Part shown: piece after piece, positions 26,667-51,239 of the stretch
Layout: each line of letters begins with the position of its first letter
Position numbering within the stretch: position 1 is the first letter of the stretch
Virus record (IMG/VR): IMGVR_UViG_3300049926_000093
Location: 1 to 55,396 of that record
DNA from: a virus
Lineage: Duplodnaviria > Caudoviricetes
Length of the DNA: 55,396 nucleotides
Reading direction: 5' to 3' (one strand)
Position numbers and translations under genes: made by a program
The notes under the pieces: generated by a model
The model's database searches: none
The model's input: the letters and a program-made list of their open reading frames with translations, nothing else
Told to the model about the DNA's origin: nothing

Positions 26667-27428
26667 TTAATCCCTATTTTTTGAATTTATGTATGTTTCC
26701 AATGTTGAAAAATCTGCCCCTGAAAAATCTGTACCAAATACTTCTTTATAAAGATTGCAGAATTCTATTGATCCTTTATATAGGTAATCTTTGACTTTAT
26801 ATTTGGGTAAACTTTGTCTTCTTTCTTCTTCATATTCAACGACTGCCTGACTTTTTCCGTAAGCATTTTGTATTGACATCCTGTTACAAATAACGGTTGT
26901 AGACAAACTCAAATATTCATATGTGCTAACTAACTCTTTAGCATCTATGGTGTCAGAAGAACTTCCGATTAAAATAGGTACTTGTGTTAAAAGAATGCGG
27001 CAATTTAATTTTTCATTGTGAGATCGGGCAAGATAGACGATCTCATCCATCGTTTGTAAAGTCTCTAAATCTGGAGTGCTAGCTTTAAAGGGAGAATACA
27101 TATCAGTGACGCACGAGGCGGCCATCGCAGATCGAAGTTCCACAGAATCAGCTCCACCTACATCAACAATAACGGTTTCATATCGAGTGTTTAGGCTGTT
27201 TAGCTCTTCATGTATGTATTTCCCATAAATTTTAACGCAATCTGGTGTTGGCTTTAATCCAATTTCTTTTCGCCGATTTATGAATTTTATACTAGATGCT
27301 TGCTTTGCAATTGTTGCGTCCACAAGCATGACATCATGCCCCATTATAGCCGCCATGATTGATAAGTTTACGGCAGTGGTGGTTTTACCCGTTCCGCCTT
27401 TTTCTCCACCGATTAATATAACTGCCAT
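26667..27428 (-). CDS. parA: ParA family partition ATPase
   Basis: Deviant Walker A GGEKGGTGKTT, VMLVDA, VIVDVGGADSVELRSAM. Confidence 0.92.
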   Translation of the reverse strand: MAVILIGGEKGGTGKTTTAVNLSIMAAIMGHDVMLVDATIAKQASSIKFINRRKEIGLKPTPDCVKIYGKYIHEELNSLNTRYETVIVDVGGADSVELRSAMAASCVTDMYSPFKASTPDLETLQTMDEIVYLARSHNEKLNCRILLTQVPILIGSSSDTIDAKELVSTYEYLSLSTTVICNRMSIQNAYGKSQAVVEYEEERRQSLPKYKVKDYLYKGSIEFCNLYKEVFGTDFSGADFSTLETYINSKNRD

Positions 27429-34389: not shown

Positions 34390-34845
34390 ATGCAAGAGCT
34401 CACAGACAAGCAAAAAAGTTTTGTAGAAAATTACGTCCTAACTTTAAACGCAACCGATGCGGCTAAGAAAGCGGGTTACAGTGAAAAGACCGCCTATTCA
34501 ATAGGTTCTGAGAACCTCACAAAACCTGAAATTAAAAAAGCTATCAAAGAACATTTGGACGCGCTTCAGGATGAGCAGCGTAAACGCTTTATAAAAGGTT
34601 CAAGCAGGGCCATTGATGCCCTTTTAGATGTCTTAGAAAATGGCGGAAGTCTGGCTAGGGTTCAGGCCGCCAATTCTTTGCTTGATAGGGCAGGGCATAA
34701 ACCTGTTGATCAAATCAGGGCAGACGTAACAAATCACGATGCAATTAGCGAAATCACGGAAGATAAACAACAGCAAGCAATTATGGACGCCGCCGAAGCT
34801 CTCGGCTCCGTTGTCGCATTTAAGCGCAATAGCGGCAAGAAATAG
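34390..34845 (+). CDS. terS: Terminase small subunit
   Basis: LTDKQK.FV..Y....NAT.AA.KAGYSEKTAYSIGSENL.KPEI. Confidence 0.93.
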   Translation: MQELTDKQKSFVENYVLTLNATDAAKKAGYSEKTAYSIGSENLTKPEIKKAIKEHLDALQDEQRKRFIKGSSRAIDALLDVLENGGSLARVQAANSLLDRAGHKPVDQIRADVTNHDAISEITEDKQQQAIMDAAEALGSVVAFKRNSGKK

Positions 34846-36145
34846 CTTAATTGCCTTTGCTAGGCTGACTCACGCGAACTATAAGCCTAGCTGGCATCAT
34901 AAGCTGCTCGCCTCGCACTTAGAGGCGGTCGCGCGCGGTGATATTCGACGACTAATTATCTCGATGCCACCGCGGCACGGAAAAACTGAGTTAGCATCAA
35001 TACGTTTTGCACCTTGGTTTTTGGGTAGAAATCCAGATAAAAACATTATTCAAGCAACTTATGCGGCAGAATTCGCAGAAGAAAGCGCAAAAAAGTCACG
35101 CTCAATACTTTCTTCGCCTGTGTACGAACAGATATTTGACGTAAAGCTCGCACAGGACAGCAGGGCGGTATCTCGGTGGCAAACTAACCGCGGCGGTAGT
35201 TATTACGCGGTAGGGGTTGGGGGTCCATTGACTGGCAGGGGAGCGAATCTGCTCGTAGTCGACGACCCCCATAAAAACAGGCAGGAAGCCGAAAGCGTCG
35301 TAATGCGCGCTAATGTTTGGGAATGGTTTACTTCGACAGCTTATACACGGCTCGAGGATAATGCTAGCGCAATCCTAATCATGACGAGATGGCATGAAGA
35401 CGACCTTGCAGGCCGATTGTTGCGAGGCGATGAGCATTGGGAATATTTATCATTGCCCGCTATCGCTGAACAAGATGAGCCGTACCGCAAGCATGGCGAG
35501 GCTTTGTGGCCACAGAAATTCGATGTAGAAGCCTTAGAGAACATCCGTTGCGCTATAGGCTCTAGGGAATGGGCTAGCTTGTATCAACAACAGCCAAGCG
35601 TTGCAGAAGGTGAAATTTTTAAGCGCGAGTGGTGGCACTTTTATTCGATGCGCCCACATTTTCAAAAAATAGTTCAGTCTTGGGATACAGCATTTAAAAA
35701 AGGTAAGGAAAACGACTTCAGTGTATGCACAACCTGGGGCGTTGCGCCTAACGGCTATTATTTGATACATGTGTGGAAAGAAAAAGTTGAATTCCCCGAG
35801 TTGAAGCGCGCGGTCGTGATGCTCGCATCAGAATTCGCGCCCGATGAGATTTTGATAGAAGACAAGGCAAGCGGGCAGAGTTTGCTACAAGAAATAAGGC
35901 AAGAAACAAGACTTCCAATAACGGCGATTAAAGTAGACGCGGACAAGATTGCGCGAGCTTATGCTGTCACGCCGACAATAGAGGCAGGTAATGTTTTTCT
36001 TCCTGAAAATGCGGCGTGGGTTAGAGATTACGTTGATAGCTTAGCGGCTTTTCCTAACGCCGCCCATGACGATGATGTTGATAGTACAACGCAAGCCCTG
36101 GCTCATATGAAATATGTGCCTCAATTTGCGTTCGGGGCTATCTAA
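34739..36145 (+). CDS. terL: Terminase large subunit
   Basis: MPPRHGKT, LLVVDDP, MTRWHEDDL, SWDTA, HDDDVD. Confidence 0.95.
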   Translation: MQLAKSRKINNSKQLWTPPKLSAPLSHLSAIAARNSLIAFARLTHANYKPSWHHKLLASHLEAVARGDIRRLIISMPPRHGKTELASIRFAPWFLGRNPDKNIIQATYAAEFAEESAKKSRSILSSPVYEQIFDVKLAQDSRAVSRWQTNRGGSYYAVGVGGPLTGRGANLLVVDDPHKNRQEAESVVMRANVWEWFTSTAYTRLEDNASAILIMTRWHEDDLAGRLLRGDEHWEYLSLPAIAEQDEPYRKHGEALWPQKFDVEALENIRCAIGSREWASLYQQQPSVAEGEIFKREWWHFYSMRPHFQKIVQSWDTAFKKGKENDFSVCTTWGVAPNGYYLIHVWKEKVEFPELKRAVVMLASEFAPDEILIEDKASGQSLLQEIRQETRLPITAIKVDADKIARAYAVTPTIEAGNVFLPENAAWVRDYVDSLAAFPNAAHDDDVDSTTQALAHMKYVPQFAFGAI

Positions 36146-36353
36146 GAGCCGCTTGCTGCTTTAAGAGTGCCTGTATCTCTGTTTTCCATTGCTTTGCATA
36201 CGTGATACACATTGGCGACACACATTGCCCATAGGTCTTTTCAATAGATTCATCTGAAAAGCTAGTGAGATTCTCGGCATCCGCAAATGCTGCTAGCTTA
36301 GCTATCCACTTTTGCTTGTTATTTTCAGCGTTCTTGTTAAATTCAAGCTTCAT
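36138..36353 (-). CDS. Small hypothetical protein (island)
   Basis: AAGGGG SD; antisense to the late operon. Confidence 0.6.
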   Translation of the reverse strand: MKLEFNKNAENNKQKWIAKLAAFADAENLTSFSDESIEKTYGQCVSPMCITYAKQWKTEIQALLKQQAALR

Positions 36354-36363
36354 GACACACCCC

Positions 36364-36522
36364 TTATTTTTTTAAGCTTTCGTATCCGTAGCCGTATTGT
36401 AGATAAATGAAGTATTCAGCTTCTTTCTTGGTCTTAAATTGTGCGTGTACACCAATTTCTCCAAACATACTTATTGTGATAATGTCCCATGTTTTTTCTA
36501 TCTTGTTGTATTTGATTTTCAT
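36364..36522 (-). CDS. 52-aa hypothetical protein (not in the ORF track)
   Basis: MKIKYNKIEKTWDIITISMFGEIGVHAQFKTKKEAEYFIYLQYGYGYESLKK; AGGGG SD; promoter/operator at 36572-36593. Confidence 0.6.
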   Translation of the reverse strand: MKIKYNKIEKTWDIITISMFGEIGVHAQFKTKKEAEYFIYLQYGYGYESLKK

Positions 36523-36633
36523 GACACTTTACCCCTTTATTTAAGTGCTTCTAATATATTCTCTTATTTATATTATAGCGCATAAACGCAGAAATATGAG
36601 GAAAAAACATAAATATTTTTTATTAAGAAAAGC

Positions 36634-36846
36634 TTAAAAAATAGGCTTTTTCTTCTTGCGCTTTGGTCCGCGCTTGTGAATATGAATGTCAGGAAGTGAT
36701 TTTCTGTCGATGAAGTAAGTGCCTCCGATATACTCGGCTTTTATGTCGCCGCTCGCGCATTGGGCTTGTATGGCTCTTGCTGATATTGGCTTTCCATCGC
36801 GCGCCTCTACGATTGTTTTAGCTTCTTTAACCGTAATTAGCTTCAT
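36634..36846 (-). CDS. Small HTH DNA-binding protein (excisionase/HTH_17-like)
   Basis: LITVKEA...ISARAIQAQCASGDIKAEYIGGTYFID, basic tail. Confidence 0.8.
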   Translation of the reverse strand: MKLITVKEAKTIVEARDGKPISARAIQAQCASGDIKAEYIGGTYFIDRKSLPDIHIHKRGPKRKKKKPIF

Positions 36847-36856
36847 TTGTATTCTC

Positions 36857-37027
36857 CTATGTTAGCTGTCGGTGCCTTAAAATTGTTTCGATCATGTCTT
36901 GCATCCCCGTTAGGTTTTCTGTCGGAACTTGTGATAGAGCATCAAATATTTCTTGTCCAGACCTTGCTGAATGAAGGGCGTCAACTATATTTGAAATCCT
37001 TTCTTCACTTTGTTTTAAATGTTTCAT
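36857..37027 (-). CDS. 56-aa hypothetical protein (not in the ORF track)
   Basis: MKHLKQSEERISNIVDALHS...RHRQLT; TAATG coupling to the upstream ORF. Confidence 0.55.
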   Translation of the reverse strand: MKHLKQSEERISNIVDALHSARSGQEIFDALSQVPTENLTGMQDMIETILRHRQLT

Positions 37028-37182
37028 TATTGATTCCCCTTGGCATCGTACTTAGGGTTTATTCTTATTTTATAGAGATATTTTTTAAGGCTTTTTTCAC
37101 AATCCGCCTCTTTAAAATCTACCCATTTTTTGTGCAGCTTACTGAAATACTGTAATTTCAGTTTTTCTATTTCGTTTTTCAT
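37027..37182 (-). CDS. 51-aa basic hypothetical protein (not in the ORF track)
   Basis: MKNEIEKLKLQYFSKLHKKWVDFKE...; AGGAG SD; promoter/operator at 37214-37239. Confidence 0.55.
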   Translation of the reverse strand: MKNEIEKLKLQYFSKLHKKWVDFKEADCEKSLKKYLYKIRINPKYDAKGNQ

Positions 37183-37432
37183 TGAATTTTCTCCTTTTGT
37201 TTATAGTAATTTAATTATAGCGTATAAGCGCAGAATTACCCGAATAAAAATAAATTATTTTATCAAGAAATGCCTGAATTTATACTATAATTGAACTGGT
37301 TGTCTGGAAAAACTTTTTAATAATTCCTTAATATTATTATAAAATATCATCAAAAATATTTTTTCTTTACACCCATAATTTATGCGCTTATGCGCTATAA
37401 TTAAAACGACAAGATAACGTGGGGGGTGTAAA

Positions 37433-37879
37433 ATGTACGAGCTCATTGATAAAGATAAAAAAGTCTATTATGTACAAAGAAATCCCGATTCTTGTGATAT
37501 CGACTATTCGCACTGCGAGAGCTGGGAAGAAGCCGTAAAAGAGATTCGGAGCGATGGTATAGACGACCTTACAGACGAACAGCTTTACCGGTCTCTTTTA
37601 ATAAAACAAGCGGAGGAGGATGCGCTTTTCGGAACGCCGACTTTCCCTATCGACGGCGGCGGCGATGACGATAAATTCGGGGTTGATAAAGAAGAGGAGA
37701 TACCCGTTTACACAGACGAAGAAAGAGAGGAGCTAAGAGAAAGGGCTGCGATCGAATATCTCTATGCATATACTCCAGAAGAGGTTCTGGAAATTGCAAA
37801 CGGAGAAGATGGGGAGTTTCCCGAGGACTTATGCTGGGTTGAGGAAGTTGAGGAAGTTGACGAAGACGAAGATGAATAA
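37433..37879 (+). CDS. Highly acidic protein (about 34% Asp+Glu)
   Basis: About 51 of 148 residues are D/E by hand count; TATAAT at 37396 with operator; GGGGG SD. Confidence 0.75.
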   Translation: MYELIDKDKKVYYVQRNPDSCDIDYSHCESWEEAVKEIRSDGIDDLTDEQLYRSLLIKQAEEDALFGTPTFPIDGGGDDDKFGVDKEEEIPVYTDEEREELRERAAIEYLYAYTPEEVLEIANGEDGEFPEDLCWVEEVEEVDEDEDE

Positions 37880-37899
37880 TAAAATAAATACAAATAATA

Positions 37900-37987
37900 A
37901 TTTTCTCCACATTTGTGGAGGTGTCTCAGAGCAGGAAATGTAACTTTAAGTTGCATTTAATTTTCCCCACATTCGTGGGGGTGTCTA
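37900..37987 (+). CRISPR. Orphan mini-array: two type I-E-like repeats and one spacer of about 32 nt
   Basis: ATTTTCTCCACATTTGTGGAGGTGTCTC and ATTTTCCCCACATTCGTGGGGGTGTCTA, 60-bp period, compensatory change in the stem. Confidence 0.7.
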
Positions 37988-38013
37988 AAGCCCATAAAAT
38001 TATGGGCTTTTTT
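37987..38013 (+). terminator. Intrinsic terminator after the mini-array
   Basis: AAAGCCCATAA-aa-TTATGGGCTTT then T-tract. Confidence 0.8.
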
Positions 38014-38036
38014 ATAAGAGAAATGGATTTCTAAAA

Positions 38037-39356
38037 ATGGGATTTTTTCGCAGCGTCACTAACTTAATGTCTGGGCGCAATCGAAAAGCGCCTACACGTG
38101 ACACGGAAACTTATCCGCGATTGATGCAAATCGGCCAGGCGATGCGTCAAAAAGCGCAGATGAAGCCAACGCCCCCGAACATTAGATACTTTAGTCGTAC
38201 GCCGTACGCTAGAGCTGCGATAAGAACGATTAGAGAGCCGCTTACTCAATTCGCATGGGAAATCGTTCCAAAAAAAGACGTCAAATTAAATTCAGAACTA
38301 GAGCGACAAATTGAAATAGCAACGCATTGCTTGTCTAGACCTAACAAAGAAGATTCGTTTCACTCGATGCTAGGCTTGCTCATCGAAGACTTTTTGGTCT
38401 TCGGCTCGGCTGTCATCGAGAAGCAAATCAGCGGCGATATGATGCGGCCTCTTTGGATGTGGCCTGTCGACTCGCAAAGTATTCAGATTTTCCCTTGTTG
38501 GTCTGGCGACAAGAACGAAGCTCGATATATTCAAACGCTCGGATTTACAAATGTAGGAATATTTGAAGGCCGAAAGCTGCGTAACGACGAAATTATTTAC
38601 ATCCGCGATAACTCGAGCACTGAAACGCCTTATGGATACGGCATGCTTGAAATAGCGTTCGCCACAATCAACCGACAGCTCGGCGTTGCAGATTATGCTG
38701 GTAACTTAGCAAGCAATGCGCAGCCATTATCAATTTTATATCTCGGCAGTTACAGCACGGCAGACATCAGGGCGTTTCGCGATTATTGGAGAAATGAAAT
38801 AGAAGGGCAGGGTCTAATGCCGATTATAGGCGGGAATGGGCAATCAGAACCAAAATCAATACCATTGCACGAAGGCACTGACAACGCGCTTTATTTGAAA
38901 TATCAAGAATTCATCATCAGGGAAATCGCCACAACGTTTGGCATCAGCCCACAGAATTTGGGGCTTGAAGCGGACGTGAACCGTAACACGGCGGAAGTGG
39001 GTGCTGACCGAGACTTGGACAGAGTCATTAAGCCGATAGCAAAGCTCTTCGCTGAGAGCTTAACGCGGCATGCGTTACACGGTGCGCTGGGCTGGCATCA
39101 AATCGAATTCAAGTTCGTTGGCTTAGACAGAGAAGACGAAGAAGCCACGGCTAAAATATACGAAACATATTATAAGGGTAATGCAATTACACCGAACGAG
39201 CAGCGAGCAAGACTTGGCCTTGAGCCTATGGACAATCAATGGGGCAACTTAGTTTACGCTGATACACAAATCGCACTAAGCGCAGCCCGTGGCGTTGGTC
39301 AGGTTGATGACAAAGACTTGAGCATAAACAATAGAAAGAAGCAGAAAAAGAAATGA
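38037..39356 (+). CDS. Portal protein
   Basis: RPN, YGYG.LE, FGISPQ.LG, ITPNE.RA.LGL.P motifs. Confidence 0.92.
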   Translation: MGFFRSVTNLMSGRNRKAPTRDTETYPRLMQIGQAMRQKAQMKPTPPNIRYFSRTPYARAAIRTIREPLTQFAWEIVPKKDVKLNSELERQIEIATHCLSRPNKEDSFHSMLGLLIEDFLVFGSAVIEKQISGDMMRPLWMWPVDSQSIQIFPCWSGDKNEARYIQTLGFTNVGIFEGRKLRNDEIIYIRDNSSTETPYGYGMLEIAFATINRQLGVADYAGNLASNAQPLSILYLGSYSTADIRAFRDYWRNEIEGQGLMPIIGGNGQSEPKSIPLHEGTDNALYLKYQEFIIREIATTFGISPQNLGLEADVNRNTAEVGADRDLDRVIKPIAKLFAESLTRHALHGALGWHQIEFKFVGLDREDEEATAKIYETYYKGNAITPNEQRARLGLEPMDNQWGNLVYADTQIALSAARGVGQVDDKDLSINNRKKQKKK

Positions 39357-39670
39357 GTGATTTAGAAAAAACAGATTATGATTTGATGGCTGAAGAGCTT
39401 CTTGATTTATACAAGAAAAAATATAACGAAATTGGCGAATATAACAAAAATAACAATAAGGCCAGCGATAAAGACATGCTTGAGTTTGTAAATGGCAATC
39501 TGTTTGTATTATCAAAGATTGTAACTAATGTAATTTTTGTTTTATCTTCGCCTTTTTCGAATGAAGAAAAAAATATAAGAAAAGATGTCAGAAGCTCGTT
39601 AACTAAAGAATTAATGATGATGATTGACGAATTAAATAATAATATTGATGAAATGAACGATAAAAAATAA
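39353..39670 (+). CDS. Hypothetical AT-rich protein
   Basis: Overlaps the portal stop; terminator at 39695-39718. Confidence 0.5.
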   Translation: MSDLEKTDYDLMAEELLDLYKKKYNEIGEYNKNNNKASDKDMLEFVNGNLFVLSKIVTNVIFVLSSPFSNEEKNIRKDVRSSLTKELMMMIDELNNNIDEMNDKK

Positions 39671-39750
39671 ATTGAATTGAAACGGATTTCAAATAAGCCC
39701 GCCTAGTGCGGGTTTTTTATTGCTTGTAAAAACTAAAAGGAGTTAGTGAA

Positions 39751-41223
39751 ATGCCAATCGAAGACCGAGTAATAGAGCAAGTAGACGGCTCAAACTTTAG
39801 CAGAACAGACCGTGTTATCTGTGGAATACAATCCAACATTTCTAATAACGGAAGCCCAGGGGTTATCTCGACCGTTGCCGTTGGTACAGCTGGTTCTTAT
39901 GCAACGCTGCCAACAATCGGCACGAGCGGAAACGGCACGGGCGCAACTTTAGTTGCTAACATGAAAGCGGTTTCCGCCGCAGTTGCTTCGCCTGGGGCTG
40001 GCTACATTCAAAATGACACAGTCACTTTGACGAGCGGGACTGGAACGAAGCCAGTAATGACGGTCAATACGACAAAGCTAGTAAGTGCCGCAGTCAACGC
40101 GCCTGGAACTAATTACAGCCCCACGGATCAAATCGTGTGTGCTGGGGGTTCCTTCACAACTGCCGCAACTTTAACCGTAGCTACAACGAAACTAATTAGC
40201 GCGTCTGTTCTTGCTCCTGGGGTCGGTTTTGCAATCAATGACACGGTGACCCTCGGGGGCGGTTCTGGAGCAACCCCAGCGGTTTTAACCGTTACACATG
40301 CGAAATTGGTTAGTCTCGCAATCAATAGCGGTGGGAGTGGGTACAATATCGGGGATACGGTAGTGTTAAGTGGGGGAACAGCGGGAACGAAAGCAGTGAT
40401 CACGGTCAGCACTGTATCCGCTGGAGCGATTGCAACTTTTAGTATATCAACAGCTGGCGATTACACGGTGGAATCTACCACGTTTACACAGTTTTCTACT
40501 TCGGGAAGCGGAACAGGCGCAACTTTCAATGCTGCACTATACGGTATACTTACTTTCACCGTATCAACCGCGGGCTCTTACACAACAAACTCTACAACGT
40601 TTACCCAAGCATCAACAAGCGGCTCAGGTACGGGCGCGACTTTCAATACGGGCGTCTTCGGCGTTAATACTTTCACTATTAGTAACGCTGGGATTTATCA
40701 AACGAACGCGGCAAGCTTTACGCAAGGCTCTACTTCTGGAAGCGGAACAGGCGCGACATTTAATACAACCTCTTATGGCGTTCTCGGCTTTACTATTTCA
40801 ACCGTCGGCTCCATGACAGTTCTACCCTCAAATCCAGTGGCGCAAGGTTCTACCTCTGGAAGCGGAACGGGTGCGACATTTAACGTGACGGGCTGGGGTG
40901 TGGGAACAGTGACAGTTAGTGCTGGCGGTACGGGATACGATAGCGGCTCACTTGTTACATTTACGGGCGGTACGCCTGCGATTGCTGCTGTGGCAACGAT
41001 TACACTGACAACGCAAACGGGAAATGCTGTTACTGTTCCTGTTTCATTCGCTAGCACTGCAAATCTTCCGAGCACTTACAGCGTTTTTGTTAATCCGAAA
41101 CAGCCCGTTTTCTGGGAAGTTGATGAGGCAAGCAAAACCGCGACGGGGTTTAACGTAATTTTAACGCCCCTTGCTGCATCAACCGTTGCGGCAGGAACAA
41201 TTGACGTTTTGGTGGTGGGGTAA
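39751..41223 (+). CDS. Gly/Thr/Ser-rich repetitive virion protein (decoration/stalk candidate)
   Basis: Repeats clearly homologous to an insertion in the tail sheath. Confidence 0.7.
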   Translation: MPIEDRVIEQVDGSNFSRTDRVICGIQSNISNNGSPGVISTVAVGTAGSYATLPTIGTSGNGTGATLVANMKAVSAAVASPGAGYIQNDTVTLTSGTGTKPVMTVNTTKLVSAAVNAPGTNYSPTDQIVCAGGSFTTAATLTVATTKLISASVLAPGVGFAINDTVTLGGGSGATPAVLTVTHAKLVSLAINSGGSGYNIGDTVVLSGGTAGTKAVITVSTVSAGAIATFSISTAGDYTVESTTFTQFSTSGSGTGATFNAALYGILTFTVSTAGSYTTNSTTFTQASTSGSGTGATFNTGVFGVNTFTISNAGIYQTNAASFTQGSTSGSGTGATFNTTSYGVLGFTISTVGSMTVLPSNPVAQGSTSGSGTGATFNVTGWGVGTVTVSAGGTGYDSGSLVTFTGGTPAIAAVATITLTTQTGNAVTVPVSFASTANLPSTYSVFVNPKQPVFWEVDEASKTATGFNVILTPLAASTVAAGTIDVLVVG

Positions 41224-41225
41224 TT

Positions 41226-41582
41226 ATGGCTAAAAAAGACGAAGTTAAAGAAGAAGTCAAAATTGAATCGCAAGAAGTTATGCATGAGCCACAAGCGATG
41301 CCTGTTGAGAATCAACAGGCAAAGCACACGCAACGAAGAGACCCTTACCAGGCATTGATGCCTGGTAACGAAGAAATCCCTGCGTTCGGTGGCGTTGTGG
41401 GCGAGATTGAGCACGCGATAATTGTCGCTGAAAAAAGAGGCAATCGAGAAGCCGCTTCTGATTTGCGCGTACTTTTAAACAAATTAGGCGAGATTCGTTA
41501 TCATTTAGTGCAGTGTGAAAACAAAGCAGATGAAGAAATTAAACATCTTTATACGCGCATCTTAAAATTGTTTTCAAGATAG
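41226..41582 (+). CDS. Hypothetical protein
   Basis: ORF in the head module. Confidence 0.55.
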   Translation: MAKKDEVKEEVKIESQEVMHEPQAMPVENQQAKHTQRRDPYQALMPGNEEIPAFGGVVGEIEHAIIVAEKRGNREAASDLRVLLNKLGEIRYHLVQCENKADEEIKHLYTRILKLFSR

Positions 41583-41590
41583 GGTGAAAT

Positions 41591-43018
41591 ATGGCGTTGA
41601 CTAAAAGCAAACGAAATGGCTTGCCTGATAGTGATTTTGCGGTTCCTAACAAGCGCGCGTTACCGATGCACGATGAGACGCATGTGAGGCTAGCCTGGGA
41701 TATGGTGAGTCGCACGCATGGGCTAACGCCAGAGGAAAAATCGCATGCCCGCTCACGCATTTTAAAAAAAGCACATAGCTTAGGAATTGATACCGATGAA
41801 TGGAATAAAAAAGAAGCCAACGCAGAAAGCGCAGAAAAAGAAACCGAAAACGAAAAAGAAAAAAATAGTTACGAAAAAGAAGAAATGCACGCCGTCAGGT
41901 TCGAAGCACTTGCCATGGTTTTGCCAGATATTTCAGACCATCCGAACCGCCTTCCTTTTAAGGGCATTCTTACAAGAGTTGATAAGCCGAGCGATAACCC
42001 GCTTGGCGGAAGTGATGGGAAGTGCGTCATTCTTCCAAAGTCGGTGGCTGAAAAAGCATTACCGACGTTGATAGGGATGGCGATTGATTTCACGCCAGAT
42101 TTAAGCGGACATGACGCACAAAGTAAAATTGGATTAATTACGGAAGCCAATATCAGTGGTGATGCAATTGATATTGGTGGTTTTTTCTACGCATCAGATT
42201 TTCCAGGAGAAGTAAAGCGCATTCGGGAAGAAAAGGCACGCATGGGGTTCAGTTATGAATGTCAGGCGCAAATTTCAGACTTGAAAGCAGACCCTTGGAT
42301 TATTAAAGATTGTATTTTCACAGGAGCAGCGGTGTTGTACAAAGACAAAGCCGCTTATACATCAACCGCGCTTCACGCGCAAAAAGAGGAAAAAATTATG
42401 GAACACGAAGCAGATTTAAAAGTTATGGATACGATTGAAAGCTTGAGAAAAGAAATTGATGAGCTAAGAAGTTTGCAAAAAAGAGACATGATAGAAGATA
42501 AGGATATGCGGGCGGGATCAATCCATGCGATGGTTAAGCCACATGCTGACAGGCTTCGTTCTTGCGCAGCCGCAATGGAAGCCGCTGGCATTGGCATGCA
42601 CGCTAAGCACGGGCATGTTGCTGTTTTGCATCACATGGCTGACAGCATGGAAGCGGATGCTAGCATTGGTAAAGTGCCGCACGTTTATCAAGTCAATGAC
42701 TACTTGATGAATGCTTCTGCAAATGTCGTTGAAGACAAAAAAATGTCGGCGATTGAAGATGCATTAAAATCAATTAGCACAAAGTTAGCAGACTTAGAAG
42801 CATCTAAGTTTGAGGCTTCTGCTGCGCCAGAACGTAAAACACTTGACCCATCCATTGCTAAGCTTTTGGCAAAATCGGGAATTGAATCATCTGGGAAAAA
42901 TCTGGACATTTCTGCTGTAAACAAGGCTTTAGATGATGCGGGCTTCAACACACGCAGAAGATTCGCTGCAAAAGTTTCGCTAGCGCAATCAGGGTTAATT
43001 GACCAGGCAAACGCCTAA
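41591..43018 (+). CDS. Prohead protease/scaffold-like protein with a DUF6582-like N-terminus
   Basis: LPDSDFAVP.KRALP.HDE.HVR.A; H...GFSYE...FTGAA protease-like core; upstream of the capsid gene. Confidence 0.7.
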   Translation: MALTKSKRNGLPDSDFAVPNKRALPMHDETHVRLAWDMVSRTHGLTPEEKSHARSRILKKAHSLGIDTDEWNKKEANAESAEKETENEKEKNSYEKEEMHAVRFEALAMVLPDISDHPNRLPFKGILTRVDKPSDNPLGGSDGKCVILPKSVAEKALPTLIGMAIDFTPDLSGHDAQSKIGLITEANISGDAIDIGGFFYASDFPGEVKRIREEKARMGFSYECQAQISDLKADPWIIKDCIFTGAAVLYKDKAAYTSTALHAQKEEKIMEHEADLKVMDTIESLRKEIDELRSLQKRDMIEDKDMRAGSIHAMVKPHADRLRSCAAAMEAAGIGMHAKHGHVAVLHHMADSMEADASIGKVPHVYQVNDYLMNASANVVEDKKMSAIEDALKSISTKLADLEASKFEASAAPERKTLDPSIAKLLAKSGIESSGKNLDISAVNKALDDAGFNTRRRFAAKVSLAQSGLIDQANA

Positions 43019-43085
43019 TCAATCACTAAAAGACAACGGAATTAAGCGCATTTTTGCGCTTTTTTATTAATACGGAGATTAAAAA

Positions 43086-44075
43086 ATGTCAGTTACAAAA
43101 CAGTTTATCCCATTAAATGCGTCGGCCGATTTTTTAGGCACTGGTGCAATTGAAATTAACATGTATGAAAGAGAGATTTTCGACGTTGTTCGTAGAACAA
43201 GCGTGGCGTTAAATCGCTTGCCTACCATGAGAGCAACAGGCCACCCACACCGATACTTTGAACAAACGGCTATCGCTAGCGGTGCGTTTACTGATCCACG
43301 CAACATAAGCCCAGCGGTAACATCGCCTACGCGTGTTGAAAGGACGGCTTATATAAAAGCGTTAGTCGCCCAGTCTAACTTGTCGATTTTCGATAAAGAC
43401 GTGACTCAACAACAAGGCGTTTTTGCTTATGTGGTCGGTAAAGATATCGAAGATATTATCTCAGGTATCGAAGTCACAAGAGCAGGCGCATTGTGGACGG
43501 GTAACGATACGAGCATGAGCAGCCCAACAACCACGCAGTACTTCGGTCTTTTAACGCAAATTACACAAACAAGCGTTATAGCACCTGGTGCCAGCATCGT
43601 TGACGGCTTAAAAGCACAAATCGCGGCAATGGTTGCTAACTCAACATACGTCGTACGTCCAAGTGCTATCTACATGAATCCAATCTTGGCTGATTACTTA
43701 GACAGAGAAGCAAAAGCAGCCCAAATCACTTTTGGAAGTGCTGAAGTGGTTGCTGGCGTTAAAGTAAAAACACTTTCAACGCAAGCAGGGGAATTACCGA
43801 TTATTTCAGACCCTTACATCCCCAGCGCGTCAGGTTCCGCGTACAACTTTAGTGCGCCGCCTGCGGGAAACAAAAATTATTTTTGTGCAATCATCATGGA
43901 AGATGAAATTGAAATCCCGTACATCTCGGGCGAGCAAGACAACCCACACCCAAGACTTTTTCAACTTGGCTTAACTGGAAACTTGGCTGGTCAATACGTC
44001 GGCATAAAGTTCGACGCTGTTCTAGCAAAAGGTCCATCTTACGCACACAGCATCGTTGCTGTTCAACGTCCATAA
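43086..44075 (+). CDS. Major capsid protein
   Basis: 329 aa; ALWTGN...YFGLL..I, PSAIYMNP, ELPIISDPY; flanked by terminators. Confidence 0.85.
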   Translation: MSVTKQFIPLNASADFLGTGAIEINMYEREIFDVVRRTSVALNRLPTMRATGHPHRYFEQTAIASGAFTDPRNISPAVTSPTRVERTAYIKALVAQSNLSIFDKDVTQQQGVFAYVVGKDIEDIISGIEVTRAGALWTGNDTSMSSPTTTQYFGLLTQITQTSVIAPGASIVDGLKAQIAAMVANSTYVVRPSAIYMNPILADYLDREAKAAQITFGSAEVVAGVKVKTLSTQAGELPIISDPYIPSASGSAYNFSAPPAGNKNYFCAIIMEDEIEIPYISGEQDNPHPRLFQLGLTGNLAGQYVGIKFDAVLAKGPSYAHSIVAVQRP

Positions 44076-44116
44076 AATTGACGGCCTCCCCATTCCTAGG
44101 CCGTTCAATTAATGGT

Positions 44117-44149
44117 AGCCGCTCCTTAAAAAAGAGCGGCTTTTATTTT
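44117..44149 (+). terminator. Intrinsic terminator after the capsid gene
   Basis: AGCCGCTC...GAGCGGCT then T-tract. Confidence 0.75.
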
Positions 44150-44174
44150 CTGTTTTAATAAAAAGGGCTAATTA

Positions 44175-44393
44175 ATGAAAGTATATGTTACCCAGGCTTC
44201 GAGCAATCACACGATCCACGTACAGCCTGGACATGAATTTAAGGATGTAAGTGATTGGGTGGATGCGCAAGGCCACCCAATTTTGCTTTCCGTCAAATTC
44301 AATAACGGCGTTGCAGATGTTGAAAGTAATTTAGGCAAGTACTTAATTGACAAAGGATTGGCTAAAAAAAGCAGGTTGATCCTACCGCATTAA
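44175..44393 (+). CDS. Small head-associated protein
   Basis: V.F.NGVA.V...LG.YLI..G pattern after the capsid gene. Confidence 0.6.
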   Translation: MKVYVTQASSNHTIHVQPGHEFKDVSDWVDAQGHPILLSVKFNNGVADVESNLGKYLIDKGLAKKSRLILPH

Positions 44394-44408
44394 TTTAAGG
44401 AGATTGGT

Positions 44409-44804
44409 ATGTCTTTAGCAACTCAAAACGTTGATGCGTGTACACCCGTTGATATTGGATCGCCGTTGCAGTTTGTTGTGCCTAGCGCATCTTTAAACCT
44501 TGATACAACAGTCGCGGCAAGCGGCAGCACTGTTTCTGACCTGATTCTAACCAACGGATACAAAAATTTTGCTTTTGGCATAACAAGCACACAAACAGGC
44601 TCTGTTAGTATTCAGCGGTATATTGATGCGGCTGGCACAATCAAGCAAGGGTCTGCTGTGACAGGTTCTTTAGTCGCGAATACGGCGTTAACGGTTAATT
44701 CGACAGATTCAAATCCGTACCAAAGTCTTATTGTTACGATTTCAAACAGCGGCGGAAGCACGGCAACGCTTAGCAATCAAATCCTTTTATTGCAGAGCTA
44801 CTAA
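44409..44804 (+). CDS. Beta-rich virion protein
   Basis: Composition and position. Confidence 0.55.
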   Translation: MSLATQNVDACTPVDIGSPLQFVVPSASLNLDTTVAASGSTVSDLILTNGYKNFAFGITSTQTGSVSIQRYIDAAGTIKQGSAVTGSLVANTALTVNSTDSNPYQSLIVTISNSGGSTATLSNQILLLQSY

Positions 44805-44807
44805 GAA

Positions 44808-45716
44808 ATGGGAAGCGTTTACTTGCAGTCAAGCGATTATGATGCCTACGGTGTCGCATCGTCGACAACAGCGGCGCAAGTAACGCAAGCATCCACGGTT
44901 ATTGATAGTTATCTACAGAGGCCAGAAGGTTTAATCTGGATGCCCGATGCAAATGGCGCGCCTGCTTATATGCAATCGCTTGCGCCCACTATTACGCTTG
45001 TATCGACGGGTTCAATCTCGCCAGGAGTAAACGTAAACGTGACGGTCACGGGGCCAGTCGTTGCGGTACAAGTCGGGTTCGTTGCGATTTTAAATAAATC
45101 GAACTCGGAAGCTGTCGAGGCTTGCTCGATAGTGGCGATTGCTGGAAATGTTATCACTTTAACTTCAGTACAGTTTTCGCACGATGCGGGATGCACACTC
45201 GATTTTGGATTAACGATTTTTGAAACGCTTTCGATGCCACAAAATCGGCCACTGACTAGATTAAGTCGATTTCCTGTTTTAAATTTACTGAGCGGACAAG
45301 GGCGTTACGGTTATACAAGACGGGGCGCATCGCCTGCGGGGGTTGTTGACCAATACAATCTTCTTGCAACAATAACGAAATTTGGTGGGCCGCCCGTGTG
45401 GGAGCCGTTTGATGTAACCGTTTGCAGCATAACAGACCCTTACACTGCGAATTTATGGATACCCGCTGGTGTGCTGATTGCTTATTATTCGGAAATCAGG
45501 GTCAATTATGCCGCAGGTTGGCAATATACCAATTTACCATCAGATATAAAACAGTCGTGCGCTAACATTCTGAATGCATCTCTAAACGCTCCGATTTTCG
45601 GCAATATGAAAATGATGAAAGCAGGGGATACAGCACTTGAAAGAGCGACATCGACTTACTTGGATGATGATACAAAAAATATGCTGGCGCAGTACAGGGC
45701 TAGGAGCTTTGTTTAA
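44808..45716 (+). CDS. Head-tail adaptor
   Basis: AS.VIDSYL N-terminus; V.Y.AG....LP.DIKQ.C...ML..YR C-terminus. Confidence 0.75.
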   Translation: MGSVYLQSSDYDAYGVASSTTAAQVTQASTVIDSYLQRPEGLIWMPDANGAPAYMQSLAPTITLVSTGSISPGVNVNVTVTGPVVAVQVGFVAILNKSNSEAVEACSIVAIAGNVITLTSVQFSHDAGCTLDFGLTIFETLSMPQNRPLTRLSRFPVLNLLSGQGRYGYTRRGASPAGVVDQYNLLATITKFGGPPVWEPFDVTVCSITDPYTANLWIPAGVLIAYYSEIRVNYAAGWQYTNLPSDIKQSCANILNASLNAPIFGNMKMMKAGDTALERATSTYLDDDTKNMLAQYRARSFV

Positions 45717-46058
45717 GTGAGCTTTATATACCCCAGGATAATTTCTATCAGACGCCCTATCCCAACAATGGGTGTGGGTGCGCTGGACTACCAAGGGCTA
45801 GACCCCACACAAGAAACGGTAATCGCCACCAGTTTGCCCGCGAGCATCCAAAAATCAAAGAATTTACGAAACCCGCCTTCGGGGTTGCCTTCCGACATTG
45901 TTAGAAATACTTCATGGGATATTTTCTTTAAAAGCCCAAATGGAACATTGCAATCAAGAGATATTATTGTGGATGACTTAGGCGTGCGCTATCAAGTTAC
46001 CGCACCCTATTGGAATTCACTAGGATACAAGGCTGAATGCGAACGCCTCGAAATATAA
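45717..46058 (+). CDS. Head closure/stopper protein
   Basis: RDIIVDDLG.RYQV; follows the adaptor. Confidence 0.65.
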   Translation: MSFIYPRIISIRRPIPTMGVGALDYQGLDPTQETVIATSLPASIQKSKNLRNPPSGLPSDIVRNTSWDIFFKSPNGTLQSRDIIVDDLGVRYQVTAPYWNSLGYKAECERLEI

Positions 46059-46256
46059 AACGTGAAACGTGCTCCATTCCTTTGCCAGAAGAAGGTTCTG
46101 TTTTTTTAGTCGATGATATCGAGTTTCGGGTAACTAAAGTGCTTGAAGAAAAAGATAAAAACAATTTTATTGCTCACGCACGCCTAGAGACGAACGATTG
46201 CAGCATTTCCATCAAGTTTGAGTCCTCAAAACCTTTTTTGCGAGACGAGGATTTAA

Positions 46257-47069
46257 ATGGCTGATATTTATGATGTTCAAGTTGTGCTGACAGCATTAGC
46301 GCAGACTGCTATTTATCCAAACGGCACTGGAAGCCCAAGCATTTCGGGCTGCGATGTTAAAATTTTCCCAGGTTACCCTATCCCTGCCGCGCTCGACTCG
46401 GATTTGACGGCGAGAAATGCGCAAGTAAGTATAGTGCCTGGCGTCGCTAAAATGTCGACAAGATTCGATAAGTCGTGGCAGACGACTTCTATTAATGTTG
46501 CAACACTGATATTGACGATTGATGCAAGCCAATCAACGCCGACAAGCACAATTACTATCACGGGTACCGTGACAACGCCGCAGACTTGCATGGTTATCGT
46601 GAACGATATTGCCTACGCTTACGGCGTACAAGCAAATGATACGATAAACACGATTGCAAGCAGTATAGCCGACATGATTGCTGGCGCGTCTGCTTTAAAC
46701 AACGTTATCACTATTACGAACGCTTATCATTTAGCCGCGCGAATCAGTGTGTCGGGCACAAGCGTTCAAGAGCTTGCAAGAGAGAGAAGGGAGCTAACGG
46801 TTACGGTTTGGGCTCCTACGCCGATTGTTCGCTCACAAATCGGTAATGCGCTTATCGTCACTTTTGCATCAAGCCCTAGGATTGCATTACCTGACGGCTA
46901 CTATGCACAACTTACTTTCAACGGTTCAAAAGAATCCGACAGAATGGAAAAAACGAAATGTTATGCAAGAGAGATTAATTTCTCGGTTGACTACGCTATC
47001 ACGAATACTGAAACTGATTACACGGTTGCTGAAACTATCAATAATATATCTTCGGTCAATAGTATATAA
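46257..47069 (+). CDS. Tail terminator-like neck protein, paralog A
   Basis: MAD.YDVQV.LT.LAQTA.YPNG...TVWAPTP..R. Confidence 0.65.
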   Translation: MADIYDVQVVLTALAQTAIYPNGTGSPSISGCDVKIFPGYPIPAALDSDLTARNAQVSIVPGVAKMSTRFDKSWQTTSINVATLILTIDASQSTPTSTITITGTVTTPQTCMVIVNDIAYAYGVQANDTINTIASSIADMIAGASALNNVITITNAYHLAARISVSGTSVQELARERRELTVTVWAPTPIVRSQIGNALIVTFASSPRIALPDGYYAQLTFNGSKESDRMEKTKCYAREINFSVDYAITNTETDYTVAETINNISSVNSI

Positions 47070-47072
47070 AAA

Positions 47073-47945
47073 ATGGCGGATGCTTATGATGTCCAAGTTG
47101 CACTAACCATTTTAGCGCAAACAGCTTTATATCCGAACGGTATTAATTTCCCCAGCATAGCCAATTGCGACATCAGAATATTTCCAGGATGGCCGATACC
47201 CGAAACGCTGGACGCAGATTTAACGGCGCGTAAAGCACAGGTAAGCGTTTACCCGCTCATGAGCAGGGCAACGACACGATTTGATACGTCATGGCAAACG
47301 ATTAGCATTAATCCCGCGACGATTACGTTAAGCACGAATGCAGCTGTCACGCAGGTAACCGTAGGCGGCGCGGTTAATTCAAATCCTCAAACCTGTATGA
47401 TTACGGTGAACGGAAACGGCTATAACTATGCGGTACAGCCCACCGATACAACGACTTTAATTGCCGAAAACCTTGCGCAACGAATCCCAGGCGCGACATA
47501 TTCATCCAATATTATTAATATTCCGAACGCTTACCGTATTTCAACGGGAATAGGTGTAACAGGGGTAAGCGCAAGAGAATTAGCGAGAGAAGAGCGTGTT
47601 TTCACTTTAACCGTGTGGGCACCTACGCCACAAGTTCGAGAAGAAATTGGAAACGCCATTTCTTCTCTATTTGCATCATTTTCAAGAATCGTGATGCCAG
47701 ACGGTTATTTTTCACAATTGAAATTTGTTGGCTCAAGTGAACACGATGAGCTACAAAAAACAAAGTGTTATCGAAGAGATATTAAATTTTTAGTTGAATA
47801 CGCTATTACTGAAAGTGAAACGGATTATTCAATCACGAACAACATCGTCAATATTTCGCCTTACCCTTACCCACAATTATTATTATTGGATGGTTCTTAT
47901 TTCATCTTATTAGATGGAGAGTTATTCGGCTTATTTGGAAATTAA
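47073..47945 (+). CDS. Tail terminator-like neck protein, paralog B
   Basis: Collinear homology with 46257..47069. Confidence 0.65.
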   Translation: MADAYDVQVALTILAQTALYPNGINFPSIANCDIRIFPGWPIPETLDADLTARKAQVSVYPLMSRATTRFDTSWQTISINPATITLSTNAAVTQVTVGGAVNSNPQTCMITVNGNGYNYAVQPTDTTTLIAENLAQRIPGATYSSNIINIPNAYRISTGIGVTGVSARELAREERVFTLTVWAPTPQVREEIGNAISSLFASFSRIVMPDGYFSQLKFVGSSEHDELQKTKCYRRDIKFLVEYAITESETDYSITNNIVNISPYPYPQLLLLDGSYFILLDGELFGLFGN

Positions 47946-48432
47946 TATTATGTCAAGAAATATTAACCAGATTTTCCAAGATAATCCCGCCACAAATATA
48001 CAAAATACGGATTTATTTTATTTAGGGCGTTCTCCGTACAATCCCGAAAATGACATGGCCGCGCAATTTTCAACCATTGCAGACGCGCTGGTTAATAGTC
48101 AATTTCCGTGGAGCATTATTACACAATCAAGCGCGCAATTGAGCGCGAATAATGGGTATTTTATAAATCGCCCCTCAATTTGTATGTTAACAATGCCCGC
48201 TCTTTGCTTGGTTGGCTCTTCTATAAAAATAATAAATGTTAACAAATTGGGAAATTTTATTTTGTCACTAAATGACAATCAAACAATAAATGGTGGAATT
48301 ACGTCAACGTCAGCGGGCCCAATGGGCTATATACAAAGTAAAAATGTGGGTAACGCAATCGAAATCGTTTGTTTTGAAGAAAACATAACTTTTTGGGTGG
48401 TTAACGGCCAAGGGAATCTTGAATTTATCTAA
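47914..48432 (+). CDS. Collar/fibre-associated protein
   Basis: NN.Y..N.....LT.P....VGS...I domain shared with 48442..48975. Confidence 0.55.
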   Translation: MESYSAYLEINIMSRNINQIFQDNPATNIQNTDLFYLGRSPYNPENDMAAQFSTIADALVNSQFPWSIITQSSAQLSANNGYFINRPSICMLTMPALCLVGSSIKIINVNKLGNFILSLNDNQTINGGITSTSAGPMGYIQSKNVGNAIEIVCFEENITFWVVNGQGNLEFI

Positions 48433-48441
48433 AGGAATATC

Positions 48442-48975
48442 ATGTCTAATTTCAATGCAATTGATTCATCCTATCCGTTCGAAACCGCTGACTATAGCGA
48501 CAACTCTTTAACTTACGCGAAGTTTCAGCAAGCATCGGCCGCCAATATTTTATTGGGTAATCCAACGGCGGGGGCGGCTAATTACTCTGAGGTGACGCTA
48601 GGGGCTGGACTATCATTCGTCGGTACCGCACTTACTTCATCGCTTGCATTGCCTACGACTGTCGTCAGCGGAACATCGCAAACCATGGCGGTTAATAATT
48701 CGTATATCGCGAATAACGCGTCTTTAGTTACGCTTACACTTCCAACATCGGCGGTGGTGGGCAGTATTTTTGAAATAAATGGATTAGGCGCAGGGCTTTT
48801 TAAAATAGCTCAGGGCTCTGGCCAACAGATTGTATCAGGCTCAAAAACCACGACTTCTGGTTCAGGCGGCAGCTTAACGGCTGTTGATCAATACGGATAC
48901 ATAGCACTTAAATGTATCGTCGCAAATAATACATTTGCTGTTATCGGCTATGTTGGAAACTTTACGGGTGCTTAA
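48442..48975 (+). CDS. Collar/fibre-associated protein
   Basis: Shares its C-domain with 47914 and its N-terminus with 48975. Confidence 0.55.
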   Translation: MSNFNAIDSSYPFETADYSDNSLTYAKFQQASAANILLGNPTAGAANYSEVTLGAGLSFVGTALTSSLALPTTVVSGTSQTMAVNNSYIANNASLVTLTLPTSAVVGSIFEINGLGAGLFKIAQGSGQQIVSGSKTTTSGSGGSLTAVDQYGYIALKCIVANNTFAVIGYVGNFTGA

Positions 48976-49211
48976 TGAGTAATTTAAATTCAATTAATTC
49001 ATCTTATCCTTTTGCGACAACAGATTACACGAATAACTCTGTTACATATGCAAAAATCCAAACAGTCTCATCATTAAAATTGATTGGAAATTTAACCGCA
49101 TCGACAGCGAACGCATCAGAGGTTGGGGTAAGTTCAAATACTGCATTAACGAGCGCAACAATCAATATCCCGTCTGATTTATTTAGCTATACATACTTTG
49201 GAGGATTATAA
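48975..49211 (+). CDS. Short fibre-like protein
   Basis: MSN.N.I.SSYPF.T.DY..NS.TYAK.Q shared with 48442. Confidence 0.55.
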   Translation: MSNLNSINSSYPFATTDYTNNSVTYAKIQTVSSLKLIGNLTASTANASEVGVSSNTALTSATINIPSDLFSYTYFGGL

Positions 49212-49214
49212 AAA

Positions 49215-51188: not shown

Positions 51189-51239
51189 GGCCGCTTTGAC
51201 AAAACGGAAAATGGGAAAAATTAAACAAGGAGCAATAAA

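Follow-up and report, generated by a model that had tools for sequence, protein, structure and literature searches.

A putative type I-E mini-CRISPR array beside a hyper-acidic protein gene in a contractile-tailed phage

Background

Why should a phage genome carry two CRISPR-like repeats with a single spacer between them, placed directly behind the gene for an extremely acidic protein? This question is raised by a locus at positions 37,376 to 38,013 of the virus record IMGVR_UViG_3300049926_000093 (Caudoviricetes), which we analysed over its whole length of 55,396 bp (hereafter the window). The record represents a whole virus, with direct terminal repeats and a rating of 100% completeness. An earlier inspection of the letters and open reading frames (ORFs), here called the sequence-only reading, had taken the locus for a combined protein and RNA anti-CRISPR transcript: the RNA was seen either as a decoy for host Cas proteins or as a guide to a palindromic operator, and the protein as a new anti-CRISPR protein (Acr). 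Our analysis favours another answer, to which we give an even chance of being right: what the phage carries is a viral mini-CRISPR array of type I-E whose spacer serves as a guide directed against a competitor.

Viral mini-arrays are of interest as a means by which phages can turn the CRISPR machinery of their host on rival phages, or put a brake on immunity. As described for viruses (PMC6858448, PMC10120712, PMC11656645), such arrays of one or two spacers use the Cas proteins of the host against related viruses, and point mutations or deletions in the orthologous site of the carrier prevent self-targeting; according to the same accounts, phage mini-arrays are leaderless and probably result from recombination with host arrays. 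The locus does not establish a new category, since mini-arrays, RNA anti-CRISPRs (Racrs) and Cracrs have all been published. What it contributes is a type I-E example in an otherwise unrelated, myovirus-like soil phage, without close relatives in the public collections searched. Particular to it are an internal partial protospacer with silent differences, a short spacer that folds on itself, and a hyper-acidic, near-orphan protein encoded in close linkage.

Two repeats of type I-E CRISPR origin

The unit consists of three elements:
37900-37927, plus strand: repeat 1, ATTTTCTCCAC-ATTT-GTGGAGGTGTCTC, 28 nt, type I-E-like (from repeat search, comparison with the natural family, and fold)
37928-37959, plus strand: variable unit, with the variable 29th repeat position at 37928 and a 31-nt spacer at 37929-37959 (from natural repeat boundaries)
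37960-37987, plus strand: repeat 2, ATTTTCCCCAC-ATTC-GTGGGGGTGTCTA, 28 nt, terminal, with a degenerate last base (from repeat search, comparison with the natural family, and fold)

Two 28-nt repeats at a distance of 60 bp had been noticed from the sequence alone, and they are indeed present. The repeat search itself returned two 29-nt copies (37898-37926 and 37958-37986), which are identical at 26 of 29 positions and start 60 bases apart; within the window, matches to a degenerate 26-nt consensus are confined to these two places, and 100 shuffles gave none. The boundaries adopted here (37900-37927 and 37960-37987) were set from natural I-E repeats: position 29 varies within natural arrays, being mostly T or C and rarely A, and the constant repeat is therefore taken as 28 nt. 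The first repeat starts 20 bases past the stop codon of the acidic gene.

The resemblance to type I-E repeats that the sequence-only reading had pointed out was borne out by comparison with natural arrays. We scanned one genome per bacterial species for the core pattern TTCYCCAC-N4-GTGGRGGTGT and found it in at least 120 bacterial genome stretches from many phyla, mostly in arrays with a 61-bp period. The fetched loci, viral ones included, yielded 71 arrays with at least four matches, 996 spacers and 48 distinct consensus repeats. The consensus of this natural family is GTCTTCCCCAC-N4-GTGGGGGTGTTTC, as exemplified by arrays of Testudinibacter (L068), Methylotenera (L094) and Pseudomonas thermotolerans (L080). 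Cas6e (PF08798) scored above cut-off in all five array-bearing genomes sampled, and contig coordinates place it within a few kb of the array in two or more of these; the repeat family is therefore assigned to type I-E. Judged by sequence, the phage repeats are of type I-E CRISPR origin.

The core pattern was derived from the phage copies, which forces agreement at positions 4-11 and 16-25 and leaves the free positions alone as an independent test. At these unforced positions repeat 1 possesses T2 (found in 44 of the 48 natural consensus repeats), T27 (36 of 48) and C28 (48 of 48), and it agrees with the natural family at each invariant position, C28 included. Its deviations are an A at position 1 and a C at position 26 (2 of 48 natural repeats each), and a T at loop position 14, which none of the 48 contains; the A at position 29 is likewise absent from all 48. 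Repeat 2 has A at position 28, where C is found in 48 of 48. This base of a terminal repeat lies beyond the hairpin and outside the mature CRISPR RNA (crRNA) in established I-E processing.

Both copies form a stem of seven pairs with a loop of four nucleotides (positions 5-22), matching the natural repeats of L068 and L094, and stem positions are intact in both (12/12). The minimum free energy (MFE) of repeat 1, -9.6 kcal/mol, is the same as that of the L068 repeat, and the MFE of repeat 2, -11.7 kcal/mol, the same as that of the L094 repeat. The co-variation of the stems, which had been remarked on at first inspection, amounts to one compensatory pair in the same seven-pair stem: U7:A20 in copy 1 is replaced by C7:G20 in copy 2, and either state is found in natural arrays. 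An 8-nt 5' handle is described as typical of I-E (10.1101/2024.10.29.618823). The repeats have the same orientation as natural repeats, the flanking gene and the terminator. The unit resembles the natural family in its stem, loop, flanking TT and GTGT, C28 and fold energy, with a period of 60 instead of 61, and differs from it in the AT-enriched loop, the A at position 1, the C at position 26, the restriction to two copies and the position away from cas genes.

That the phage carries no cas genes agrees with our searches: Cas6e (PF08798), Cas7e (PF09344) and Cas1 (PF01867) are without a match in the complete phage record, other cas families not having been searched. The unit is thus, as first described, an orphan in a phage genome, oriented for transcription with or just after the acidic gene. 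Rfam searches returned no family at gathering thresholds for the whole window; with E-values of up to 10 permitted, only sub-threshold, terminator-driven matches and no CRISPR family appeared between 37850 and 38050.

Two observations on similar sequences may be added. The rare GTGTCT handle variant of the phage is also seen in a metagenome contig (L170:345-369, minus strand), in an I-E-like repeat that stands alone; this 3-kb contig is G+C-rich and has no second copy. Secondly, the motif GTGGGGG(G)TGT before the ATG of the acidic gene was considered as a third, half repeat and rejected: the same GTGGGGGTGTAAAATG precedes the ORF at 19556-19876 on the minus strand, and the motif is therefore regarded as a shared translation-start motif. 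In the form GTGGGGG(G)TGTAAAATG it is found in the translation start regions of the acidic gene (37419-37435, plus strand) and of that ORF (19874-19889, minus strand). GTGGGGG occurs seven times in the genome versus 1.65 times expected, a number reached in none of 100 shuffles. The first 10 bases of GTGGGGG(G)TGTAAAATG are the same as those of the 3' stem half together with the handle in the I-E repeat, which may or may not be a coincidence.

The spacer and its partial match in a tail-fibre-like gene

Among 996 natural spacers of the family, 907 have a length of 32 nt, 50 of 33 nt, 33 of 34 nt and six of 31 nt, the length of the phage spacer, which becomes 32 nt with the variable 29th repeat position included. 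The spacer hairpin described from the sequence is real: between 37936 and 37958 it forms 10 pairs, one of them G:U, with an MFE of -8.4 kcal/mol. Its alleged oddness for a guide, however, did not withstand comparison, as 155 of 991 natural family spacers have a fold of equal or greater stability, and 104 of 991 form 10 pairs or more. It is for a spacer of such AT-rich composition that the fold is unusual: folds as good were obtained with 18 of 5000 shuffles and, among random 31-mers of the genome, with 143 of 5000. Natural family spacers are richer in G+C. Because the hairpin falls within the range seen in them, it is not strong evidence of a special function.

A target-like sequence was found in the phage itself:
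49741-49771, plus strand: partial spacer match, 24/31, in the tail-fibre-like ORF 49635-51188 (from ungapped scan and codon comparison)

This site is the sole outlier in an ungapped scan over 1.2 Mb, which covered all fetched loci and the window with the array masked; the next-best sites reach at most 20/31, and the maxima for 30 shuffled spacers are 20-22. A score of 24 against the phage genome was attained by one of 1500 shuffles, none of 1500 natural viral 31-mers and two of 991 natural spacers, in total by 3 of 3991 controls. No other copy of the spacer is present in the window at up to three mismatches. The mismatches of the self-match fall on spacer positions 1, 5, 14, 23, 25, 26 and 28. 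Read in the frame of the ORF, the phage encodes P-AGNVTLS-LN and the spacer R-AGNVTLS-CI, and the mismatches inside AGNVTLS (5, 14 and 23) are synonymous third-codon changes. The three nucleotides upstream of the site are ACC. The ORF is situated directly upstream of the tail sheath gene, and its N-terminal motifs recur in tail-fibre-like genes of five IMG/VR contigs.

A self-match with silent codon changes looks like that of an ordinary spacer from a related phage. It is suggestive of an acquisition from the orthologous tail-fibre-like gene of such a phage, the carrier possessing a mismatched copy. On sequence grounds, a match of this coding type is not to be expected for a designed decoy or for a promoter-directed guide. 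The idea of a guide to a palindromic operator consequently loses ground, as the spacer bears instead the coding signature of a phage tail-fibre-like gene.

Transcription signals

The elements relevant for expression of the unit are:
37380-37401, plus strand: tandem TTATGCGC, two copies, followed by a TATAAT -10-like hexamer at 37396-37401 (read from the sequence)
37433-37879, plus strand: 148-aa acidic ORF, near-orphan (from ORF list and composition)
37857-37885, plus strand: candidate sigma-70 promoter TTGACG-17-TAAAAT, 14 nt before repeat 1 and within the acidic gene at its 3' end (promoter scan, 10/12)
37987-38016, plus strand: intrinsic-terminator-like hairpin AAAGCCCATAA/TTATGGGCTTT with T-run, 20 nt before the portal gene (inverted repeat I6, 11/11 complementary)

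The terminator postulated at the end of the unit is supported by folding: a hairpin at 37987-38010, followed by a U-run, appears in both the MFE and the centroid fold, and a simple terminator scan did not flag it. The RNA from 37880 to 38015 folds into four consecutive hairpins, namely repeat 1, spacer, repeat 2 and terminator, with z = -5.7 and none of 200 shuffles as good.

Less can be said for the promoters. Of the -10 element and operator proposed upstream of the acidic gene, the TATAAT and the preceding tandem TTATGCGC do exist, but no -35 hexamer is found 16-18 nt away and the promoter scan did not call the site; together they possibly constitute a promoter through which the acidic gene is regulated. 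Over the whole region, five promoter-like sites were counted versus 6.2 expected from shuffles. Since it shows no excess of such sites, we treat TTGACG-17-TAAAAT as a lead only.

A proposed mini-array with a competitor-directed guide

The intact Cas6e-type hairpins, the preserved invariant handle positions of repeat 1, the common orientation, the terminator and the mismatched, structural-gene-like spacer are the reasons why we rank a competitor-directed guide first. The following course of events may be envisaged. A contractile-tailed phage would once have received a copy of a repeat-spacer-repeat unit from a bacterial array, in an accessory island flanked by its terminase and portal genes. 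It would be transcribed by read-through from the acidic gene, from its own promoter, or from both, with transcription ceasing at the terminator. Cas6e of the host could then cleave at the base of each repeat hairpin, and a single crRNA, composed of the 5' handle of repeat 1, the spacer and the hairpin of repeat 2, would be loaded into host Cascade. This crRNA would steer Cascade-Cas3 of the host at a competitor with a related tail-fibre-like gene, a case of heterotypic superinfection exclusion. The carrier's own copy would escape through its seven mismatches, among them those at positions 1 and 5, which we take to lie within the I-E seed. Transcription, processing, loading and a perfectly matching competitor are all steps that we infer. 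An unusually clear internal clue, the likeness between the spacer and the tail-fibre-like gene of the carrier, makes this rival-phage explanation directly testable.

The locus shares several properties with published virus-borne mini-arrays (Medvedeva et al. 2019, PMC6858448; PMC11656645): a single spacer is enclosed by two repeats in a viral genome in which cas6e, cas7e and cas1 were not found. It likewise has an intergenic accessory position and no recognisable leader that we could see, as in the arrays described (PMC6858448), and, as reported for SPV1/SPV2 and for phage mini-arrays, the carrier contains a locus that resembles the spacer but is mismatched (PMC6858448). In contrast to the published cases, the phage repeats differ from each other and are not identical to any array found (22-23/28 for the nearest compared), no perfectly matching target virus was found, and the spacer folds on itself and falls 1 nt short of the usual length.

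These differences lead to the points that speak against a competitor-directed guide. The nearest natural repeats compared are identical to the phage repeats at only 23/28 (L068) and 22/28 (L094) positions, counted from the sequences, while published mini-arrays are described as carrying repeats identical to those of the host (PMC11656645). The two copies have diverged from each other (26/29), and no array with the GTGTCT variant of the phage was detected among metagenome contigs. At 31 nt the spacer lacks 1 nt in comparison with 99% of the natural ones, and the 10-bp hairpin in it could interfere with loading or with pairing to a target. The self-match could be due to chance, at about 1 in 1000 per control; three full-length natural spacers also reach 24/32, with matches that are AT-rich, of low complexity or terminator-like. 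Searches for the target or its source gave nothing: IMG/VR contains no exact 27-mer of the spacer and no match to its codon-degenerate pattern, and the BLAST search against phages that had been suggested at the outset returned chance-level matches only (best E = 0.3 in phage and 3 in plasmid records). Among 5.8 billion proteins, no close orthologue of the tail-fibre-like protein turned up. Finally, the one sequencing run listed as containing the phage is a DNA run, labelled soil metagenome and possibly the source of the record, and no RNA run is listed; a comparison of its contigs with 37300-51300 at 80% likeness recovered the source contig and short unrelated pieces, with no variant over the protospacer site or the array.

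Alternative explanations

The locus can have other explanations. The unit could be an RNA decoy, that is, a two-repeat Racr-like anti-CRISPR, in which a hairpin-locked, short and targetless spacer ties up Cas6e/Cascade of the host and lowers its immunity against the phage, with the acidic protein perhaps cooperating as a protein Acr. We regard this as rather unlikely. It would agree with the two intact Cas6e-type hairpins, with a spacer that lacks one nucleotide, has no target found and is folded to a degree rarely matched by shuffles of its composition, and with a candidate promoter directly upstream, as reported for solitary repeat units (PMC10651486); an abundant crRNA is moreover described as competing with host crRNAs for Cas proteins (10.1101/2024.10.29.618823). 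Yet Racrs are solitary repeats by the published definition, and the SRUFinder rule treats two repeats within 100 bp and with at least 90% identity as a mini-array (PMC10651486). Here the repeat is not solitary: a second copy lies 60 bp away with 90% identity, and the Racr-type unit of the sequence-only reading is a mini-array by that rule. The spacer hairpin is also within the natural range, the coding-type match to a phage structural gene fits an acquired spacer and would have no role in a decoy, and the invariant handle positions kept by repeat 1 would be needless in a dead-end decoy. The likeness to Racrs (Camara-Wilpert et al. 2023, PMC10651486), for example RacrIE1 and RacrIE2, is that of a phage-encoded mimic of type I-E repeats without cas genes found, with a candidate promoter just upstream and in an accessory island beside a small protein gene; the difference consists in the two repeats with a spacer and in the preservation of the handle positions for a working crRNA.

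A second explanation concerns the acidic protein alone: expressed from this accessory island, it could be a DNA mimic, acting either as an anti-CRISPR or as an anti-restriction protein in the style of Ocr or ArdA. The 148-aa protein with about 34% aspartate and glutamate that had been reported is encoded by the ORF 37433-37879 and contains 51 such residues (34.5%). Its pI is 4.05 and its net charge about -38, and among the 79 genomic ORFs with 80 aa or more it ranks as the most acidic. Its only relatives are P0003 and P0004, two near-twins of 120 and 121 aa on metagenome contigs of 978 and 1510 bp. It is 30% identical to P0003 (BLASTP, E = 4e-10), and both possess the N-terminal motif YVQ..D.DY.HC.S.E.A and the C-terminal motif YTP.EVL..A.G.D.FP; because of this relative with conserved terminal motifs we consider the ORF a real gene. 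A profile of two sequences retrieved nothing further among 5.8 billion clusters, and single-protein scans of IMG/VR gave no relatives of the acidic protein or of P0003.

An anti-defence function of this protein would be in line with its extreme acidity and small size, with its reality as a gene, with the site of its gene between terL and the portal gene, in a non-structural island that also has divergent small ORFs, and with its position directly upstream of a CRISPR-derived RNA. Against it stand the lack of any match in Pfam, PHROGs or PDB sequences and of a usable neighbour in the Atlas (TM scores all at most 0.31, Atlas model with pLDDT 0.50). Acidity alone is furthermore a weak predictor, the hint of a helix-turn-helix protein nearby is sub-threshold only (HTH_17, E = 0.11, ORF 36634-36846), and a blocker of type I-E would oppose a mini-array that depends on I-E interference. 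We consider this function unlikely. For the new Acr of the sequence-only reading, too, acidity and position are the sole support, the databases just named having added nothing. The small near-orphan family nevertheless is a candidate for an anti-defence role. The acidic protein appears to be the product of a separate accessory gene in the same transcription unit, and a joint action with the RNA is putative.

Alternatively, the unit might be a decaying relic: a piece of a host array, brought in by illegitimate recombination and unused, which persists behind the acidic gene, in its 3' untranslated region, as a set of hairpins that are stable and act at most as an RNA stabiliser or terminator. 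The differences between the copies at 3 of 29 positions, the loss of the invariant C28 from repeat 2, the bases at positions 14 and 29 that no natural consensus repeat has, the short spacer, and the failure to find a host, a target or a relative with the same unit are all consistent with decay. Neutral decay, however, does not favour 12 of 12 intact stem positions and a sole stem difference that is compensatory, nor is it apparent in the naturally invariant handle positions of repeat 1, all of which are kept, and the deviations of repeat 2 fall in the part of a terminal repeat that is outside the mature crRNA. We hold the relic to be quite improbable.

Very doubtful is a combination in which the unit acts as a two-repeat RNA anti-CRISPR, its phage-derived spacer having turned into a 10-bp hairpin with one nucleotide lost, so that the resulting Cas6e/Cascade complex would be unable to open a target, and in which it forms one transcript with an acidic DNA-mimic Acr of the family P0001/P0003/P0004 for a joint counter-defence against type I-E.

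The least probable of all is a Cracr-type regulator, with the spacer pairing partly with the host cas8e/casA promoter or with the promoter of a CRISPR-guarded toxin and the loaded Cascade silencing cas without cleavage: viral I-E Cracr arrays are known, one of them validated, often beside acr genes (10.1101/2024.10.29.618823), viral regulatory mini-arrays have been described (PMC10120712), the phage repeats are diverged from natural ones like psi-repeats, and a near-palindromic spacer could in principle suit an operator-like target, but the processed I-E Cracr psi-spacers reported measure 24 and 21 nt versus 31-32 nt here (10.1101/2024.10.29.618823), the best spacer match is a tail-fibre-like coding stretch with synonymous differences and no promoter, and about 1.15 Mb of DNA flanking natural arrays contained nothing better than 20/31 and nothing above shuffles, a weak test in that this DNA seldom reaches the cas8e promoter and need not include that of the true host. 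The locus does resemble Cracrs (Liu et al., 10.1101/2024.10.29.618823) and the CreR/CreA mini-arrays of hosts (Shmakov et al. 2023, PMC10120712) in that diverged repeat-like sequences flank a spacer-like sequence, here on a phage. Cracr-type elements are described as dependent on I-E Cas proteins of the host and as often located beside anti-CRISPR genes (10.1101/2024.10.29.618823). Unlike the tested I-E Cracr, the phage unit possesses a nearly full-length spacer (31-32 vs 21-24 nt) whose best match is a phage structural gene and no cas promoter.

Similar units in other viruses

Viral I-E units are not confined to the phage studied here. The repeat core was found in 46 IMG/VR stretches, of which 12 are long arrays, three have two or three matches and 31 have one. 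In 11 of the 31 single-match loci, representing about five distinct elements, a second, diverged copy is present 60-64 nt away, and two of these loci (L012 and L024) have the same 60-bp period as the phage unit; viral I-E mini-arrays therefore recur. For comparison, the number of viral solitary repeat units given in the Racr paper is 2,103 (PMC10651486), and the Cracr preprint lists 20 I-E viral arrays, 16 with two spacers and four with three (10.1101/2024.10.29.618823).

Some of the IMG/VR loci contain units of other kinds. In L032 (14108-14268, plus strand) three repeat-like units stand side by side and are followed by a terminator: one ends in GTGGATTGAAAC, one is like CACTGCCGTACAGG.AGCTTAGAA and one is I-E-like. 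The first two presumably resemble type I-C and type I-F repeats, and the whole may be a multi-type Racr cluster. Similar clusters are seen in L004, with I-C-like and I-E-like units, and in L006, with I-E-like and I-F-like units. Four IMG/VR contigs of about 38 kb (L013, L027, L038 and L043) share an identical solitary I-E-like repeat, TCTTTCCCCACACTCGTGGGGGTGTATT, which lies directly past the end of a gene and runs into a T-rich tract; this may well be a solitary repeat unit that related phages of one group have conserved.

The phage and its host

The phage has a G+C content of about 40% and is contractile-tailed by gene content, with a tail sheath, a baseplate wedge and a tape-measure protein. 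Further genes encode a RecT-like annealing protein, a replication initiator, a Q-like antiterminator, a DNA methyltransferase and a ParA-like partition protein. Genes for a large terminase (TerL, 34739-36145) and a portal (38037-39356) are present as well, and the interval between them is a 1.9-kb island with the putative mini-array and the acidic gene. It starts with five small minus-strand ORFs of unassigned function (36138-37182), which are followed by the plus-strand unit of acidic gene and repeats.

TerL is at most 44% identical to that of any phage record and the tail sheath 63.5% identical to that of Ralstonia phages. A blastn search with 37300-38100 against phage records returned no match, and the portal has no relatives in IMG/VR by single-protein scan; among 400 scored genomes of a sample from the class of genome G005, none matched the portal at E <= 1e-20. 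In the search for a host, BLAST of all fetched loci against the phage produced the repeat matches, one AT-rich chance match inside a gene and nothing else; that the host is a low-GC proteobacterium is only a guess.

The ParA-like partition ATPase (26667-27428, minus strand) is 48% identical to a protein annotated as MipZ on plasmids of Piscirickettsia salmonis. This gene suggests that the phage possibly persists as a plasmid-like prophage.

Two minor features may concern the regulation of the island. A divergently transcribed ORF of 70 aa (36634-36846, minus strand) has a lysine-rich tail and the sub-threshold HTH_17 match mentioned above (13.3 bits vs a cut-off of 27), and possibly encodes a small DNA-binding protein that regulates the island. 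The divergent intergenic region that separates the acidic gene from the small minus-strand ORFs contains ATAAGCGC (37226-37233) and GCGCTTAT (37384-37391), an inverted pair spaced about 150 bp apart, which might represent operator half-sites for a shared regulator.

The tail module, lastly, contains a tandem duplication: the adjacent paralogues at 46257-47069 and 47073-47945 (plus strand) both match phrog_13532, a family of unknown function, with E = 1.6e-54 and 9.2e-64.

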